A DNA stretch of 29,243 bases from Candidatus Hydrogenedentota bacterium (lineage in GTDB: Bacteria > Hydrogenedentota > Hydrogenedentia > Hydrogenedentales > SLHB01), in assembly GCA_034408725.1 (NCBI GenBank), contig JAWXCN010000043.1:1-29243 (forward strand), written 5' to 3'. The translations under genes and the position numbers were made by a program. Below the pieces are notes generated by a model that was not told the origin of the DNA, did not search any database, and saw only the letters and a list, made by a program, of their open reading frames with translations. Positions 22,396 through 29,104 of the stretch are shown here, piece by piece (position 1 is the stretch's first letter; each line of letters begins with the position of its first letter).

Positions 22396-23202
22396 TCATC
22401 CCAATATTCCGAGCACCGGCTTCCCACTTGTAGCCTGCCACAGAAGCAGCGCGAACATGAGCAAATACACCGCGGCGAAAACAACAATGGCCGCCACCTG
22501 ATTGCGTGCCGGCATGCGCGCGTGCCGGCCGATCAGGAATCCCGCGAACGGAATGATTTGAAGCGCGTGCAGGCCCATGAAATGCGCAACGCGCAAATCA
22601 CCGGCTTGCGTGCTCCAGTTTACGATGGGAAGTCCCGGCCCTCCATCGGGAACGCCAATGGCGTGCGCGTCATTCGCGACGATGAATCCACCTTCCGCGC
22701 TGCCCGCCAACATCATCAGCAGTCCCATCCGAATGCCCCAGAGATACGCCGGCGGAAGATCGATGCGCGCGCAGAACAGGATGAACAACAAAAACACCAT
22801 GACCGTATTTAACGCGATCATGTTGCCCATCAGACTGAAGACCGCGCCGTCAAACGACGTGGCGTTGTTGAAATGCGACGTAGTGCCGCGAACGGCCTGC
22901 ATTACGATGCACACAATCTCGACGGACATGGCTACCGCAACGCCCCAGGTAATCACAAGCAGGGTTTTTCGGAAACGCGCGACGTAGCCGGAGAACCATG
23001 CAACGGTCCACACAAAGATGAAGATCGACACCGCGAATTTCATCGGCTTGATCCATGGGTCGATTCCCATGATGACCCGGTCGTCGAAACGCGCGATCAG
23101 TAGCATGCCCGCGAATGCCGCCAACATGCCCCATCCGGTAACCGCGAGAACGGGATTGCGTGAATAGACTGCGGCAAGAAATTCACGCAGCTTCGTTTTC
23201 AA
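22396..23202 (-). CDS. Conserved multi-TM membrane protein, partner of ABA4-like gene
   Basis: WIKPMKFAVS, QAVRGTTSHFN, GDLRVAHFMGLHALQ; about 7 hydrophobic helices; overlaps the upstream gene's 3' end. Confidence 0.8.
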   Translation of the reverse strand: MKTKLREFLAAVYSRNPVLAVTGWGMLAAFAGMLLIARFDDRVIMGIDPWIKPMKFAVSIFIFVWTVAWFSGYVARFRKTLLVITWGVAVAMSVEIVCIVMQAVRGTTSHFNNATSFDGAVFSLMGNMIALNTVMVFLLFILFCARIDLPPAYLWGIRMGLLMMLAGSAEGGFIVANDAHAIGVPDGGPGLPIVNWSTQAGDLRVAHFMGLHALQIIPFAGFLIGRHARMPARNQVAAIVVFAAVYLLMFALLLWQATSGKPVLGILG

Positions 23203-23626
23203 CGATAAACACCTTTCGCTTGATCGCCACGCGAAGCACGAAGTACGCGAGCAGACCTATCGGGCCGAGCATGAACGTGAGGAAAAGGCAGGGGATGACG
23301 AGCAAATGGTGAATACCGAGACGTTGCGCATCGCGCACTTCCCAACTGCCGATGAACAAGTCGAATGCGAGATAGTGTATCCACCCGGCAAGCAGCATGC
23401 CCGGATTGCGAAACATGGTTCCCACGTCTGCAAGCGAGCCGAAACCGCCTTCAGCGCCGCGAAAATATAGCGCGATTAGAACGAGATACGCGACGCCCAG
23501 TGCCAGGGGAATGATAACGCCGCAAATAAGACTCGCCGCCCACTTCCAACGCGGCAGAAAGACCAAGAGCAACCAGCCTGCCATCACAAGCGTGCTGCAT
23601 GCGGAGAAAATACCTTCGAGTGACAT
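23183..23626 (-). CDS. ABA4-like (DUF4281) membrane protein
   Basis: GWLLLVFLPRW, GFGSLADV, LLAGWIHYLAFDLFIGSW, PCLFLTFMLGPIGLL. Confidence 0.88.
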   Translation of the reverse strand: MSLEGIFSACSTLVMAGWLLLVFLPRWKWAASLICGVIIPLALGVAYLVLIALYFRGAEGGFGSLADVGTMFRNPGMLLAGWIHYLAFDLFIGSWEVRDAQRLGIHHLLVIPCLFLTFMLGPIGLLAYFVLRVAIKRKVFIVENEAA

Positions 23627-23684
23627 GGCGCACCTTTCTCGAACAATCGGCGCGCGCCGGCTTGAGCACGCTCGCCGCGTCAAA

Positions 23685-24653
23685 CTATTTCGCCTTCTTG
23701 CGGCGCTCCATCATCTCGCGCCACGTAGTGAGCACGAATTTTTCGTCTTCTACAAATTTTTTGAATTCCGGATCGGTCATCAAGCGCATGTCATTCAAGC
23801 GCGTCTCGCTCGAACCCGTAAACAAGGGCCATTCCTCATTCGGCTTGGCGCAATGCAGAATGCACATGGTCACGCCGGGCTTCATCGTGCGCAGTTCTTC
23901 CATCAGCTTGAACTTTTTTTCTGTGAACGTTTTCCAGCCATAGGTGCGGTTGTGCAGATCGTCGAGCACCGGCAACCCGCCTTCCCACACCTGTTCGGCG
24001 AGGTTCGTGATGGCCAACTGCCGCGTCGCGTCGGGTTCATCGCCTGAAATAAACTGCATGTGACCGCCCATGATCATGATCGGAATCTGTTTCTCGATGC
24101 CAACTTTCACGTACGCCGCCGTATACTCGGGCTTGGCGTAGAGCGTGCCCATGTGCGTGTCGAGATGCGTGATGGGCATGCCAAGCGTCACAGCGCGGTC
24201 CAGTTGCGCGCGAATTTCCGTTTCCACTTCCTCCGCGCTCGCGTTCGTGGTGACGGAGATGACGTTTGACCACAGACACCCGGCCGGGTCGACAAGGCCT
24301 GGCACGGCTGCTTTTCCCGCGAGCGGTCCCCAACGATAATTGTGCCATTCCGCGGTGAGGGTCAGGTGCAGACCGTTATCGACGTTTGGATGGTCCTTGA
24401 GATAGTCCGCGAACTCCGGCACCCACGGGCACGGCATCATCGTGCTGACCGAGGTGAGTACGCCGTATTCGAGCGCGGCAATAGCCCCCTGGTTCTGTCC
24501 GTGCGACATGCCGGCGTCATCGCAATGAAACATGATGACGCGCGCGTCCTTGGGCCAGCCAAGGCGTTCGGCATAGGTGGGCTTTTCCTGCGCGTGCGCG
24601 ATGAGCGCCGCGCACGGAATCAACATTAACGAAGCCAGTCTGCGTAGTATCAT
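23685..24653 (-). CDS. Secreted YdjC/ChbG-family carbohydrate deacetylase
   Basis: Signal peptide ending IAHA; HCDDAGM, GLHLTLTAEW, EIRAQ, THLDTHMG, PGVT..ILH. Confidence 0.85.
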   Translation of the reverse strand: MILRRLASLMLIPCAALIAHAQEKPTYAERLGWPKDARVIMFHCDDAGMSHGQNQGAIAALEYGVLTSVSTMMPCPWVPEFADYLKDHPNVDNGLHLTLTAEWHNYRWGPLAGKAAVPGLVDPAGCLWSNVISVTTNASAEEVETEIRAQLDRAVTLGMPITHLDTHMGTLYAKPEYTAAYVKVGIEKQIPIMIMGGHMQFISGDEPDATRQLAITNLAEQVWEGGLPVLDDLHNRTYGWKTFTEKKFKLMEELRTMKPGVTMCILHCAKPNEEWPLFTGSSETRLNDMRLMTDPEFKKFVEDEKFVLTTWREMMERRKKAK

Positions 24654-25249
24654 TTCGTGGTCCTTCCCGTGTATTTTTCATCCAATGTTTTCGTGGCCAT
24701 GATTTCGCCAGTCTCGACAAATGCATTCAAAAGCGAGCGGCGCACTTTACCCCCGCCTTTTTCACCCGTGACGGCGTCAATCGCGCGGATGTTGATGTAT
24801 CCCCCCGCATCAAAGTAATAGACCCAATAGGGATAGTGTATCAACCGGACGCGGACGGTGTCGCGCGGTTCCGGTTTTGCAAGAGAGCCGCGCTGGCGGA
24901 GAATGAACGCGAGCAACCCCGCGCGCGCGTGCGCCTCCGCTTCGGATTCATTCATGCTGGCGGAGAACACCGGCCCGGGCGCATCGCCATCGACGACCCA
25001 TGCATCCATTTCGAAAATCGTAAACATGCCTGAATACGAATCGACACACGCCGTCAGCGGGTGTTCATCTTTGCCGAGCACACAGCGAATATCGAAGAGG
25101 TGGCGCGGAAGCCATACAATTTCCAGCTTTGGCAGCGCGGCAGTGCCGGGCATCCGCCGGAAATTCAGCGCAATACGCGCGCGGCGAAAGATTCCGGGCG
25201 ACAGCCGCCGCATCGCCACCGTTTCCGGCATTCGCGCGGCAATGTGCAT
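24650..25249 (-). CDS. Hypothetical soluble protein (199 aa) in SSS operon
   Basis: Starts 4 nt after the upstream stop and has an ATGA overlap with the deacetylase; motifs VWLP, CVDSYSG, HYPYWVYYF, AIDAVTGE. Confidence 0.75.
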   Translation of the reverse strand: MHIAARMPETVAMRRLSPGIFRRARIALNFRRMPGTAALPKLEIVWLPRHLFDIRCVLGKDEHPLTACVDSYSGMFTIFEMDAWVVDGDAPGPVFSASMNESEAEAHARAGLLAFILRQRGSLAKPEPRDTVRVRLIHYPYWVYYFDAGGYINIRAIDAVTGEKGGGKVRRSLLNAFVETGEIMATKTLDEKYTGRTTK

Positions 25250-25253
25250 GGCG

Positions 25254-25484
25254 CTACCGGAGGCGGCCGCGGAGTTTCAGGCCCCAGAGGAACATGCCCG
25301 CGCCGATGAGGAACAACACCAGGCCCGCCACGCCATTCACAACCCGGGCGTGGCCAGGGTCCTGAACAACAGTGGCGATCAGCACAATGATTGCGAGGAT
25401 GGCCAGGAAACCGCCGAGCATCAAAAAGGTTTCCGAATCGCGTTGTGTATGGTCTACCGGCGGCGGGTCTTGGCGCTCAGACAT
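25254..25484 (-). CDS. Small 2-TM membrane protein (76 aa)
   Basis: TGATG coupling to the upstream gene; two hydrophobic helices followed by a basic tail. Confidence 0.78.
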   Translation of the reverse strand: MSERQDPPPVDHTQRDSETFLMLGGFLAILAIIVLIATVVQDPGHARVVNGVAGLVLFLIGAGMFLWGLKLRGRLR

Positions 25485-25843
25485 CAGTCACTCCACTTTG
25501 CGAAATAGAGGTAGACAATAACGTGCGGCGTCATCGAGATGACGGTCCAAAGCCGGAGGTCGTACAGAATCCCCTTGCCGGGCGAATCAAGATTTACATA
25601 TTCCTTCTTCAACAGGAACACCCAGAGCATTCCGGCGCCAAACAGGCCCAGGGAAAACAATGTCGCCCAGGGCATATAGACGGAATTCAAAAAGTTGTTG
25701 ATCGGATCGAATATCGGCGACAAGATGGGTTTGAATACGGCGGTAATTCCGTCACTGACCGCCGTGCTGACGCGCTCCATGAATGCGCCAAACGCGGTGC
25801 TGGCGCGTTCAATGAATGATGGCTCGGCTACTGCTTCAGACAT
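25484..25843 (-). CDS. Small membrane protein (119 aa)
   Basis: TAATG coupling to the symporter; amphipathic N-terminus, two TM helices, DLRLWT...HVIVYLYF. Confidence 0.78.
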   Translation of the reverse strand: MSEAVAEPSFIERASTAFGAFMERVSTAVSDGITAVFKPILSPIFDPINNFLNSVYMPWATLFSLGLFGAGMLWVFLLKKEYVNLDSPGKGILYDLRLWTVISMTPHVIVYLYFAKWSD

Positions 25844-27423
25844 TACGACACCCTATCCAACAAGACACGCTGAATCTTGCCGTCCTTGATCACCTGGCCA
25901 AAGATCAGGCCGCGCAGTTTTTCTTCCGGCTCGGGCGGCGTACACAGGCTCACGATGACCGTTACGCCCACGGTAAACACAAACGACCACATGGCGACAA
26001 AGAGAAACGGATCGGATATCGTGAACAAGCCTTGGGTATTATGCAGAACGGTGCTAAAAGCCACGCCCAGCAACAGCCCAGCTAGCCCGCCCCATTGCGT
26101 CGCGCGTTTCCACATTATGCCAAGCAGCAAAATTGCGAAAACGGGCCCCTGGAACATGGACAGCGCCTTTTGTATGAACGTGTACATGCTCGGCGTCTGG
26201 CCGATGGGATACGCCATCAGTACCGCGAATATCAGGAAGACAATCGTAAAGATCCGGCCAACGATCAGGCCGTGGCGCTCGTTCAACTCTTTTCCGAATC
26301 GGAATTTATAGAAGCGCCCATACAGGTCCGTCGTCCAGATGGTTGACGCGGAACTGAGATAGGTGTCGGCGCTGGACATGAACGCCGCGACCAGCGCCGA
26401 GAAAGTCAGACCTCGAATGCCTGCGGGCAGCAACTTGTTGATCATTTGCGGTACCGCGTCGTCGCCCGTCGCCAAACCCGGCACGATGACGACCGCGGCA
26501 AGCCCAGGCACGGCCACCATAAACGGGATGAAGGATTTAAGGAAACCACCAAACAACATGCCGGCTTTCGCGTCCCATTCCGTGCGGGCCCCAAAGCAAC
26601 GCTGTACGATGCCCTGGTGTCCACTGAAATAGGCAGTGGACATGACAAGTCCGAGACCAAACACAATGCCGGCCCAGGGATACGGCGTCGTCGTATCGTT
26701 GGGCAGCATGATCGTGAAATGATCGGCATACTTCGGGTCAACGGTTTGCGACATGACGCCGATTTGTTCTTTCAGGCTTTCCCAACCTCCCACTTCCCAC
26801 AAGCTCAACACCAGTAGCGCCATGCCGCCGACAAACATGACTATCAACTGTATAACGTCCGTCATGACCACCGCGGCAAGTCCGCCGGAAAGCGTGTAGA
26901 TTCCAACCACGACGACAGTGATCGCAATGGAAACGGGAATGGGCCAGCCGACCGTAGTATTGAGAAACTTCGCGGTCGTCCAGAAAATGACCGCGAGCAT
27001 GACGACCATGAAAACGCCCCAGATTCCGGCGTGAATGATCTGCACGGCGGTGTTATAGCGTTTGCCGAGGAATTCAGGAATGGTGTAGACGCTTGAGCGC
27101 CAGTAGTACGGCATGAATACAAACGCCGCGATGGCCATCGCCGGCATCGAGCCCATCCAGTCGAAGTTCGCCGCCGAAATGCCGTAGGAATACGCTGCGC
27201 CGCCCACAAATATGAAATCGGTCGCGCCGATGTCGCTTACGACAATCGACATGCCAATCGCCCAGAACGGCAGCGCGCGGCCCGCGAGGAAAAAGTCCGT
27301 GGCGGATTTTACGTATTTGCCGAAGTATGTGCCGATGGCGAGAATGCCCGCCATGTACGTGATGATGATGGCGAGATCGAACCCCGAAAGACCAGTGGTC
27401 GCAACCTGAGCGGCCCCATCCAT
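25843..27423 (-). CDS. Sodium:solute symporter (SSS/SLC5, sugar/inositol-type)
   Basis: DFFLAGRALPFWAIGMS, TIPEFLGKRY, YTLSGGLAAVVMTDVIQ, QGIVQRCF, AAFMSS, TTDLY. Confidence 0.94.
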   Translation of the reverse strand: MDGAAQVATTGLSGFDLAIIITYMAGILAIGTYFGKYVKSATDFFLAGRALPFWAIGMSIVVSDIGATDFIFVGGAAYSYGISAANFDWMGSMPAMAIAAFVFMPYYWRSSVYTIPEFLGKRYNTAVQIIHAGIWGVFMVVMLAVIFWTTAKFLNTTVGWPIPVSIAITVVVVGIYTLSGGLAAVVMTDVIQLIVMFVGGMALLVLSLWEVGGWESLKEQIGVMSQTVDPKYADHFTIMLPNDTTTPYPWAGIVFGLGLVMSTAYFSGHQGIVQRCFGARTEWDAKAGMLFGGFLKSFIPFMVAVPGLAAVVIVPGLATGDDAVPQMINKLLPAGIRGLTFSALVAAFMSSADTYLSSASTIWTTDLYGRFYKFRFGKELNERHGLIVGRIFTIVFLIFAVLMAYPIGQTPSMYTFIQKALSMFQGPVFAILLLGIMWKRATQWGGLAGLLLGVAFSTVLHNTQGLFTISDPFLFVAMWSFVFTVGVTVIVSLCTPPEPEEKLRGLIFGQVIKDGKIQRVLLDRVS

Positions 27424-27442: not shown

Positions 27443-27506
27443 GTGTCTTGATCCCAAGCAAGACACCCGCGGCCGCTACGATAAACGATGGCGCGGCAGG
27501 GGTCAA
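27443..27506 (-). promoter_or_regulatory. Promoter of SSS operon with downstream palindrome (operator or leader hairpin)
   Basis: TTGACC(27506-27501)-N17-TATCGT(27483-27478); GTGTCTTG-N8-CAAGACAC at 27443-27466, just before the AGGGGAG RBS. Confidence 0.6.
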
Positions 27507-28952
27507 CTACGATGCAATTTCGACGGTGTCCGCCCTCTCGGCCACCAGGGATTCGCCTACCATCGTGAGGCACATCGCGGATGGTGCGATTAGCCCGCAC
27601 GAGACTACGGCCTTGATCGCGTCTTCAACGCTGAGTTCGCACCGGTGGACACCGCCCGACGCGAACAATTCCAGCAAACCCACGGAAATGTTGGGTGCGG
27701 TCGGCACGAAAACCCGGTGGTATACGTCGCCTGTCGTGCTGCGCGACTGCCCTACGAGAAAGCCCACTGCAAACACGCCCGGATACGGAAATTCGACCAG
27801 CACGGCTTCCTTAAACCCCATGCCGTCTTTCTTGAACAACAATGTCTCGACGATCTGCTTTGATGCGCCGTATACCGTCGCGATGAGGGGTATGCGGTTC
27901 AGAATCGCCTCCCCAATACGAATGATGCGTCCACCCACTACCCATGTTGCAATATAACCGGTGACGTACAACGCCGTGAGCATGAGGAAAATCGATACCA
28001 CCGCCGTCACTACGGGCGATACCTGTGGCGACAAGTAGGGGGCCAGCGGCCGGAGCAAACTTTGAGTCACCGGTTCAATACGGCCCGCGGTGAAGTCATA
28101 CAGGAATTGGACGATGAACGCCGTTATCGCCAGGGGCACCAGCACAAAAAAACCCGCTAATATCCGTTTGCGGAAGACGTTCTTGGTGAACTCCCAGAGT
28201 GTGGTACGTTTGGCGATGGCGACCTGCGCGCTATGTCCCGCCGCCACAGTGGCCTGTCCACTGGGAACCTCGGCCTTCCTCGCATCAACCGTTGTGTCGA
28301 TCACCTCTGGAACGAGAATTCCCGCGGACATAACAGCCTTTACCGCGTCTTCGACAGTCAAATCGGACTGCTGAACCGCCTCCGCAGGCATGAACTCGAG
28401 GTAGCCGCTGGTGGGATTCGGCGTCGTGGGAACAAATATGCGGTAGTATTCGCCACGTCCGTCGATCTGCGTGCGGCCTACTACAAACGCAATTGTCTTA
28501 ATGCCTGGACCAGGGAAATCAACGATCACGGCCTCCTGGTAAACCGGCCCGGCATCCTCCTTGGGCTGAAGCACATCCATGACCTGTTTCGACGCCGCAT
28601 AAATGGTCTTCACCAGGGGAATGCGCCTGAGAAGTCCTTCACCTACCCCGATAACCCATCGGCCAAGGACTACAGCCGTGGCCAAGCCGATGAGATAGAG
28701 CATCGCAAAGAACAGGACTACTGAAATCAGCGCAACGGCAAACGGCACCGCGCGATCCGGAATTGGAATTTGAAATTTGGAGACCCACGGCGCGAGATTC
28801 GCCGCTGTGAGCCGATAGCACAGAATCAGCGCGTAAGCTGTCACGCCAAGAGGGACAAGCACCAACAAACCGCGCAACATATAGCCCTGCACGGTCGTGC
28901 GCAGGCGAACCAACAGTGGTTTCCGCGCGGGGCGGTGGCGGGGGATTCTCAA
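27507..28952 (-). CDS. Tandem DUF502-DUF502 membrane protein
   Basis: Two copies of GxxVLVPLxxT...RIPL..T.Y.ASKQ...V.FP.PG...FVPT.PN...G.LE....L.VEDA.KAV.S.G. GGAGG RBS before TTG 28952; start uncertain. Confidence 0.88.
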   Translation of the reverse strand: MRIPRHRPARKPLLVRLRTTVQGYMLRGLLVLVPLGVTAYALILCYRLTAANLAPWVSKFQIPIPDRAVPFAVALISVVLFFAMLYLIGLATAVVLGRWVIGVGEGLLRRIPLVKTIYAASKQVMDVLQPKEDAGPVYQEAVIVDFPGPGIKTIAFVVGRTQIDGRGEYYRIFVPTTPNPTSGYLEFMPAEAVQQSDLTVEDAVKAVMSAGILVPEVIDTTVDARKAEVPSGQATVAAGHSAQVAIAKRTTLWEFTKNVFRKRILAGFFVLVPLAITAFIVQFLYDFTAGRIEPVTQSLLRPLAPYLSPQVSPVVTAVVSIFLMLTALYVTGYIATWVVGGRIIRIGEAILNRIPLIATVYGASKQIVETLLFKKDGMGFKEAVLVEFPYPGVFAVGFLVGQSRSTTGDVYHRVFVPTAPNISVGLLELFASGGVHRCELSVEDAIKAVVSCGLIAPSAMCLTMVGESLVAERADTVEIAS

Positions 28953-29104
28953 AACTACTGCACCTCCGGAAACCAAAATCGTTTTTTTACGGAAACCAAC
29001 AAGCCAAACACATCAATAAACCCATTCTACACAGTTGAAATGCCATTCGCGATTCCACATGATTTCAAAGCAATAGCACTTTTTTGAACTACGGTAGCGG
29101 CGCC

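Follow-up and report, generated by a model that had tools for sequence, protein, structure and literature searches.

Carriers of the sodium:solute symporter family (SSS/SLC5) are textbook single-chain secondary transporters, and to our knowledge the known exceptions add to the carrier one small helix, as in MAP17 or the DUF4212-type partners. Bacterial SSS carriers with one small partner include the pairs formed by DUF4212 and VC_2705-type carriers, by DUF485 (YjcH) and ActP, and by YhdT and PanF, together with carriers accompanied by DUF3311. Here we analysed a stretch of 29,243 nucleotides from a Candidatus Hydrogenedentota bacterium (assembly GCA_034408725.1, contig JAWXCN010000043.1, positions 1 to 29,243), henceforth the window, which encodes an SSS carrier followed by three small proteins of unnamed families (A119, B76 and C199) and by a YdjC-family deacetylase. 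The comparative evidence outlined below indicates that the carrier and the three small proteins define a conserved four-gene module, which on balance probably encodes a physically assembled, four-subunit SGLT-type symporter. We are much more certain of a functional link between the four genes than of an assembly of their products. The genes and the region preceding them are as follows:

25843-27423, minus strand: SGLT-type sodium:solute symporter (SSS), 526 amino acids, identified with PF00474 and TIGR00813
25484-25843, minus strand: A119, small membrane protein of an unnamed family, 119 amino acids, identified as an open reading frame (ORF) and by alignment and AlphaFold2 (AF2) model
25254-25484, minus strand: B76, two-transmembrane (TM) hairpin protein of an unnamed family, 76 amino acids, identified as an ORF and by alignment
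24650-25249, minus strand: C199, soluble alpha/beta protein of an unnamed family, 199 amino acids, identified as an ORF and by AF2 model
23685-24653, minus strand: YdjC-family carbohydrate deacetylase with a signal-peptide-like N-terminus, 322 amino acids, identified with PF04794
27424-27506, minus strand: intergenic region 5' of the SSS gene, 83 nucleotides (nt), with one weak sigma-70-like match at 27506..27478, by consensus only

The five genes had been presented in a preliminary description as tightly coupled, and ORF listing together with reading of the sequence confirmed their junctions: TAATG between SSS and A119, TGATG between A119 and B76, a TAG stop, 4 nt and an ATG between B76 and C199, and ATGA between C199 and YdjC. 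The single promoter proposed for all five genes is plausible, the 83-nt gap containing just the weak sigma-70-like match (9/12 positions), and seven such sites were found in the region where 3.6 were expected. As DNA, the stretch occurs in eight runs labelled microbial mat metagenome, and no RNA run was listed for it.

The SSS protein matches PF00474 over the full length of the profile and above its curated cut-off (positions 1-406 of 406; 1e-64; 219 bits, cut-off 22.8), as expected of a member of the family, and also exceeds the cut-off of TIGR00813 (262 bits, cut-off 184), while falling below that of the YidK equivalog NF007790 (214 bits, cut-off 401). The solved chains nearest to it are those of hSGLT1 (9e-63), vSGLT (1e-61) and SGLT2 (3e-49), followed by SiaT (4e-25) and NIS (1e-16), so that among solved SSS structures its closest relatives are of the SGLT type. 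According to a structural account, SGLTs comprise helices TM0-TM13 and the single helix of MAP17 packs on TM13 (PMC10803289). The alignments of the window carrier to hSGLT1 and vSGLT stop just past the equivalent of TM12. Its final hydrophobic segment (hydropathy) spans residues 477-495 of 526 and none follows, leaving about 13 TM helices in place of the 14-helix TM0-TM13 architecture of SGLT-type symporters, with the 14th helix (TM13) missing. The 31 polar C-terminal residues beyond this point are conserved in every module-type orthologue examined, distant ones included. L112 and L113, paralogues encoded by this genome and by a relative, present an extra terminal helix 35-45 residues past the equivalent point, and hydropathy suggests such a helix in two others (L110, L111). 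Since the alignment ends after TM12, a polar tail follows and the paralogues have an additional helix, the module-type carrier is, on these sequence grounds, a TM13-less SGLT. This genome encodes about eight paralogues of the family, and only the module SSS has an A119 partner. Several orthologues (L017, L020, L023, L024, L029 and L030) contain an insertion of about 100 residues that falls between the equivalents of window residues 221 and 232, and these proteins are 617-657 amino acids long.

The conserved unit in related genomes consists of four genes, SSS-A119-B76-C199, and not of the five originally proposed. Homologues of C199 were detected in 32 of 41 related genomes, and tblastn searches with ORF tracing recovered the four-gene order in about 28 of 31 order-level loci, with junctions mostly of -4, -1 or a few bases; loci in which B76 was not detected retain a gap of 211-246 nt. 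Profile searches identified A119, B76 and C199 each in 109 of the 135 Hydrogenedentota genomes and in 73 of the 86 high-quality ones, the per-family tallies of B76 equalling those of A119, and the SSS gene was present in about 109/135 genomes, in a pattern matching that of its partners and usually adjacent to them. The expectation that accessory homologues would co-occur with SSS genes was hence borne out by the gene-neighbourhood analysis. By reading of the tables, the only discordant genomes were G005, where A119 and B76 stand at the edge of a contig and C199 is missing, and G047, with a C199 fragment only, both of them fragmentary. By count, 100 of the 108 genomes having both A119 and C199 carry the two on a single contig, no more than about 1.1 kb apart. 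In all five near-complete module-negative genomes (5/5) the best SSS match is a paralogue with at most 33% identity, as against 55-91% for orthologues. The module is divided in three genomes. Two of them (G007 and G133) have SSS-A119-B76 and C199-YdjC at separate loci, in the third (G108) the parts are SSS-A119 and B76-C199, and all four genes are retained in each of the three. Since this gene order is met again in dozens of genomes, the arrangement is far beyond chance.

The order is also kept between lineages that differ in GC content and whose C199 proteins are only about 30% identical. The search for related loci had relied on a narrow A119 peptide pattern and missed a KSB1-like branch; among 12 distant metagenome loci retrieved with a KSB1-labelled C199 protein, eight presented the order SSS-A119-B76-C199, including contigs of 43% GC that are 98-100% identical to that protein. 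The other four comprise a 1-kb contig with B76-C199, a contig cut at C199 and two loci (L126 and L128) in which C199 accompanies a MoxR-like gene. The genes around the core are otherwise unrelated between loci, and the recurrent neighbours in 79 de-duplicated loci were YdjC (14), a sigma-54 activator (8), ThuA (6), a histidine kinase (5) and a sulfatase (4). The ThuA-like genes (PF06283), found for instance in L016, L022 and L027, stand beside YdjC in two cases, which hints at a shared sugar-processing context.

As supposed in the preliminary description, profile searches returned no known family for any of the three accessory proteins, and searches with PADLOC and PHROGs provided nothing useful for them. 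A119 has one strong TM segment (60-78, hydropathy) and was modelled by AF2 with helices at 10-77 and at 96-117, the latter a C-terminal helix of 22 residues (predicted local distance difference test, pLDDT, 71). The loop motif D95-L96-R97-x-W99 is invariant in the alignment. The protein would comprise an extracytoplasmic N-terminal segment, a TM helix, a cytoplasmic loop and a C-terminal hydrophobic helix, and since the forms encoded in KSB1-like loci are only 67-69 amino acids long, its conserved core corresponds to a two-helix hairpin and the loop motif. No match to A119 was found in Pfam or NCBIfam, and its profile had no matches at E <= 10 among PDB sequences, where no homology to MAP17 or any other solved accessory subunit was detected. 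DUF3311, DUF4212 and DUF485 were absent among the 14 families matched by 24 A119 members at E <= 1; a single long form reached DUF3311 with E 0.039 (14 bits, cut-off 30), and this match was not reproduced. The placement of the C-terminal helix after the conserved loop, in the same model of pLDDT 71, resembles the C-terminal end of the paralogues, and A119 could accordingly be pictured as replacing TM13 or as binding in the manner of MAP17. A search for longer proteins containing A119 identified no SSS-A119 fusion, which is weak evidence. The same search returned only two N-terminally extended forms. Extended A119 proteins (P0151 and P0152; L038:6833-7813, L040:5215-5673 and L041:5136-5579) carry additions that range from an N-terminal signal-peptide-like or TM segment to an extra domain, the largest of about 170 residues and with no Pfam match.

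B76 contains two TM segments (22-40 and 48-66, hydropathy), the first preceded by the motif R15-D16-x-E18, invariant in the alignment, and both of its ends are probably cytoplasmic. Its Pfam matches are to generic two-TM families only, all sub-threshold; DUF3311, DUF4212 and DUF485 were absent among the 25 of 58 families listed for B76 members at E <= 1, and its profile returned only noise from PDB sequences, such as FXYD at E 1.2. In one distant locus (L121), a single ORF of 224 amino acids joins a B76-like domain (residues 10-75, E 6e-14) through an extra TM helix with a linker to an A119-like domain (residues 155-221, E 1.5e-14). This fusion argues for a single assembly in which B76 and A119 both act. 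A cytoplasmic B76 C-terminus needs just such an extra helix in order to reach an extracytoplasmic A119 N-terminus, and the helix fits the topology deduced from the charge distribution and from the A119 variants with a signal-peptide-like or TM extension. The locus with this fusion also encodes, directly 3' of C199 (L121:5869-7680), a second, distant SSS-family paralogue with 28% identity, a terminal TM helix and different substrate-site residues. In two genomes of one genus (G024:C176:19412-20080 and G122:C486:3933-4598), the halves of B76 lie about 400 nt apart in one frame of 249-314 amino acids, which suggests that a domain has been inserted into the loop between the two TM helices.

No TM segment was identified in C199, and hydropathy revealed no export signal in any of 29 homologues. 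AF2, given an alignment of 29 sequences, modelled it with confidence (pLDDT 94.1; predicted template-modelling score 0.86). The model starts with two short helices, continues with two long beta-hairpins separated by a helix, and closes with a long C-terminal helix, the beta-hairpin motif being duplicated. C199 has no match in Pfam, NCBIfam, PADLOC, PHROGs or PDB sequences, and a Foldseek search of the model against the PDB returned nothing at E <= 0.1 (best E 0.12). An exhaustive VIA structural search gave best Z scores of 5.1 (4exr) and 4.8 (5boi) over about 55 residues, so that no solved fold appears to be matched by the model. PepSY-like entries (the YpeB C-terminal domain, YpmB and CD1622) recur in that search as weak matches (Z 3.2-5.1, about 55 residues), within the chance range according to the notes of the tool, and a D-A-x-[ST]-G motif following the beta-hairpin is one that we take to be PepSY-like. 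PepSY domains are typically extracytoplasmic; C199, by contrast, has no export signal, and it has no Pfam PepSY match either. In a set of 1.84 billion representatives, the C199 profile recovered 561 clusters at 50% identity; among the 150 listed, all are stand-alone proteins of about 140-230 amino acids, and one holds NCBI proteins labelled 'candidate division KSB1'. An Atlas search yielded unnamed clusters only. At two of the distant metagenome loci (L126:1087-2635 and L128:654-2213), C199 homologues (profile E ~1e-29) directly follow a gene for a MoxR-like AAA ATPase, a call that was made by eye from its N-terminal sequence.

The comparison with human SGLT2-MAP17 (and with SGLT1 and vSGLT) outlines a carrier of the same SLC5/SSS family by sequence, and the combination, putative here, of an SGLT-type carrier with a small membrane partner. 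It differs in that the carrier lacks TM13, in that there are three partners, including a soluble protein of 199 amino acids, instead of one, in that A119 and B76 have no meaningful PDB sequence match, and in that three substrate-site positions are occupied by Asp. Like the bacterial carriers with one partner, the window SSS is encoded beside a small membrane protein, but its partners lie downstream, are three in number and include a soluble one, none of the families of the described partners was matched, and the carrier is of the SGLT and not of the ActP, PanF or VC_2705 type.

The galactose ligands named in a study of vSGLT are Q69, E88, N260, K294 and Q428 (PMC8037263). Counted on the alignment, these positions correspond to D69, D88, T263, K296 and Q418 of the window carrier, which hence keeps the Lys and the Gln of the five ligands named there and differs at the other three, and vSGLT N64 corresponds to D64. 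The 2xq2 chain has Ala at position 294 and is presumably a K294A mutant. D64, D69 and D88 are present in 19/19 aligned orthologues and in 0/4 paralogues, which carry N/N/N/S, H/H/H/Q and E at the respective equivalents; sugar SGLTs have N, Q/H and E there. Among distant module-type carriers, those of L121 and L129 show D/D/D and those of the KSB1-like L119 and L123 show N/D/E. Together with the Lys, Gln and Tyr retained from sugar carriers, three carboxylates would suit a protonated amino sugar, although not in all branches, and we put forward such a substrate less firmly than the multi-subunit symporter itself.

A possible source of this substrate is the product of the fifth gene. The YdjC protein matches PF04794 over its full length (profile positions 2-265 of 266; 5e-53; 181 bits, cut-off 29.7), the domain of E. 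coli ChbG and other deacetylases of the YdjC family, and it falls below the NCBIfam equivalog cut-offs for ChbG (NF002559; 72 vs 227 bits), for 'carbohydrate deacetylase' (127 vs 400 bits) and for HpnK (47 bits, cut-off 233). ChbG is cytoplasmic in E. coli, whereas the window protein begins with a signal-peptide-like hydrophobic segment (1-19, hydropathy). A hydrophobic leader was present in 12/12 module-linked YdjC N-termini inspected, and where the mature N-terminus is visible it ends at a site of the Ala-x-Ala type, after which comes a conserved motif. The protein therefore looks exported, in agreement with the signal peptide noted in the preliminary description; that it feeds the transporter by deacetylating an N-acetylated sugar outside the cytoplasm is plausible and compatible with the data, for at most a subset of lineages, the proposal depending on how the acidic site is read. 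The gene is present in a single copy in this genome, and YdjC occurs somewhere in 108 of 109 A119-positive genomes, the lone exception being 63% complete, and in 12 of 26 A119-negative ones (table 108/1/12/14, with six unlisted negatives inferred by elimination). As these genomes are related and not independent, and as YdjC is present in 120/135 genomes of the phylum, the association is suggestive only. YdjC adjoins the module in just 11/31 order-level loci and 14/79 unique loci, and at the 12 distant metagenome loci it is never adjacent; for this reason it is an optional add-on and not a core part of the module.

The genes flanking the locus were also examined. Directly upstream of the SSS gene, a gene on the minus strand (27507-28976) encodes a 489-amino-acid protein with two DUF502 domains. 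It keeps its place beside SSS only in same-genus loci (L011, L012 and L031) and on these grounds is not part of the module. Downstream of YdjC and nearly gapless with it (22396-23683, minus strand) lie genes for an ABA4-like membrane protein of 166 amino acids (PF14108) and for a multi-TM protein of 268 amino acids, the latter with no family match. In the congener locus L011, a tRNA U5-methyltransferase gene directly follows YdjC, and the two window genes hence look like a local insertion.

Co-inheritance, adjacency, joint loss, the fusion and the matching deficit of the carrier tie the accessory genes to this SSS. The multi-subunit SSS system with two membrane partners and one soluble partner put forward in the preliminary description is likewise strongly supported by co-occurrence, adjacency, overlapping junctions, fusion and joint loss. 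In the assembly that we favour, the catalytic subunit would be an SSS that has lost TM13 and ends in a conserved cytoplasmic tail, served by three dedicated partners. A119, a membrane protein with two helices whose gene always comes directly after that of SSS, would probably pack at the place of TM13 and MAP17 in SGLTs; B76, a two-TM hairpin, would offer its conserved cytoplasmic N-terminus as a candidate docking site; and C199, a cytoplasmic alpha/beta protein, would form a structural cap or, alternatively, a gate. The YdjC protein, putatively exported and co-transcribed here and in some relatives, may generate the substrate in the extracytoplasmic space. From these comparisons we infer that the parts assemble physically, what topology they have, that transport is coupled to Na+, and what is carried, possibly an amino sugar in its de-N-acetylated, cationic form. 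Several observations weigh against this picture. Binding and transport are argued from comparative evidence, and the related genomes are not independent samples, so that counts of co-occurrence make the statistical support look stronger than it is. Between A119 and the TM13 regions of the paralogues there is no significant similarity (profile E 0.24 or worse), and the idea of TM13 replacement is consequently drawn from layout alone. C199 lies apart from SSS in 8/108 genomes, and in the two metagenome loci (2/12) in which it follows the MoxR-like gene no SSS is found in the ~2 kb upstream. With respect to the substrate, the Asp triad is not universal, as illustrated by the N/D/E of the KSB1-like carriers, no catabolic gene travels with the module in the flanks of the 79 loci, YdjC adjoins it in a minority of them, and the presence of NagB, found in this genome and in 116/135 genomes, module-negative ones included, is uninformative because it is near-universal. 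A prediction of the four-chain complex, with C199 as the scored partner, gave 0.30 and 0.31 against a mark of 0.32, without controls, and speaks neither for nor against assembly.

The main rival to a structural complex is that the accessory proteins are regulatory. C199 could be a cytoplasmic plug or sensor that binds the transporter via B76 and the SSS tail as the metabolic state dictates, much as GlnK acts on AmtB and SbtB on SbtA, or it could relay substrate occupancy as a transceptor. This is an unlikely explanation, yet one with several observations in its favour: C199 is soluble and has neither a TM segment nor a signal peptide, it is found separated from SSS more often than any other part, it can adjoin a MoxR-like ATPase, and the module has a sigma-54 activator nearby in 8/79 loci and a histidine kinase in 5/79. 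The linkage of these regulator genes is nonetheless inconsistent, the searches of Pfam, NCBIfam, Foldseek and VIA detected no recognisable ligand-binding or signalling domain in C199, and the order of its secondary-structure elements differs from that of PII proteins. The strict co-inheritance with a TM13-less SSS suggests instead a structural need, at least for A119.

We consider it improbable that all five components form an obligate pathway, with YdjC deacetylating an N-acetylated sugar outside the cytoplasm and a four-part symporter importing the product. The ATGA coupling of C199 and YdjC in the window, the conserved export signal, the unequal presence of YdjC in module-positive and module-negative genomes, its continued pairing with C199 in the two genomes (G007 and G133) where that pair is split from the rest, an acidic substrate site that would suit a protonated amine, and NagB in this genome would all be accounted for. 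Such a pathway is difficult to reconcile with the low rate of adjacency and its absence at the distant metagenome loci, with the prevalence of YdjC in the phylum regardless of the module, and with a KSB1-like branch devoid of two of the three Asp residues; moreover, at 72 vs 227 bits for the ChbG equivalog, the YdjC substrate is not assignable from the family. Least probable of all, and by our estimate very improbable, is that the three small genes serve functions unrelated to transport, such as envelope or stress functions, and stand beside SSS through inherited operon structure. No function can be read from the sequences of A119, B76 and C199, and C199 occurs without SSS in L126 and L128, as this explanation would have it. 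Against it, the four genes are lost together and retained together even when unlinked, their order persists across lineages as divergent as described above, and the SSS that they accompany lacks TM13, a specific structural deficit.

A more specific form of the favoured four-subunit symporter may be envisaged as a 'split and capped' SGLT, in which TM13 would have been handed over to A119, and A119 and B76 would anchor C199, with a fold not seen before, on the conserved SSS tail, where it would gate or energise transport; the acidic D64/D69/D88 pocket would make the carrier specific for a cationic amino sugar that an exported YdjC deacetylase sets free. This version is speculative and we give it a low probability; if true, no SSS before it would have been shown to need a soluble subunit, and glucosamine-type substrates would have their first SSS route. 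A literature search covering SSS accessory subunits, Hydrogenedentota symporters and chitin, and periplasmic YdjC/ChbG, with most subscription journals outside its reach, turned up no account of the module. If the four-subunit symporter is real, it would represent an SSS with a soluble cytoplasmic component and a carrier without the helix that its relatives all keep, and would bear on how LeuT-fold transporters are stabilised and regulated. The module also defines three unnamed protein families, one of them, C199, with the 561 clusters mentioned above, and its divergent acidic substrate site leads to a concrete, testable substrate hypothesis. For the Hydrogenedentota, a phylum of which we know no cultured representative, the module would constitute a near-core nutrient-uptake trait.

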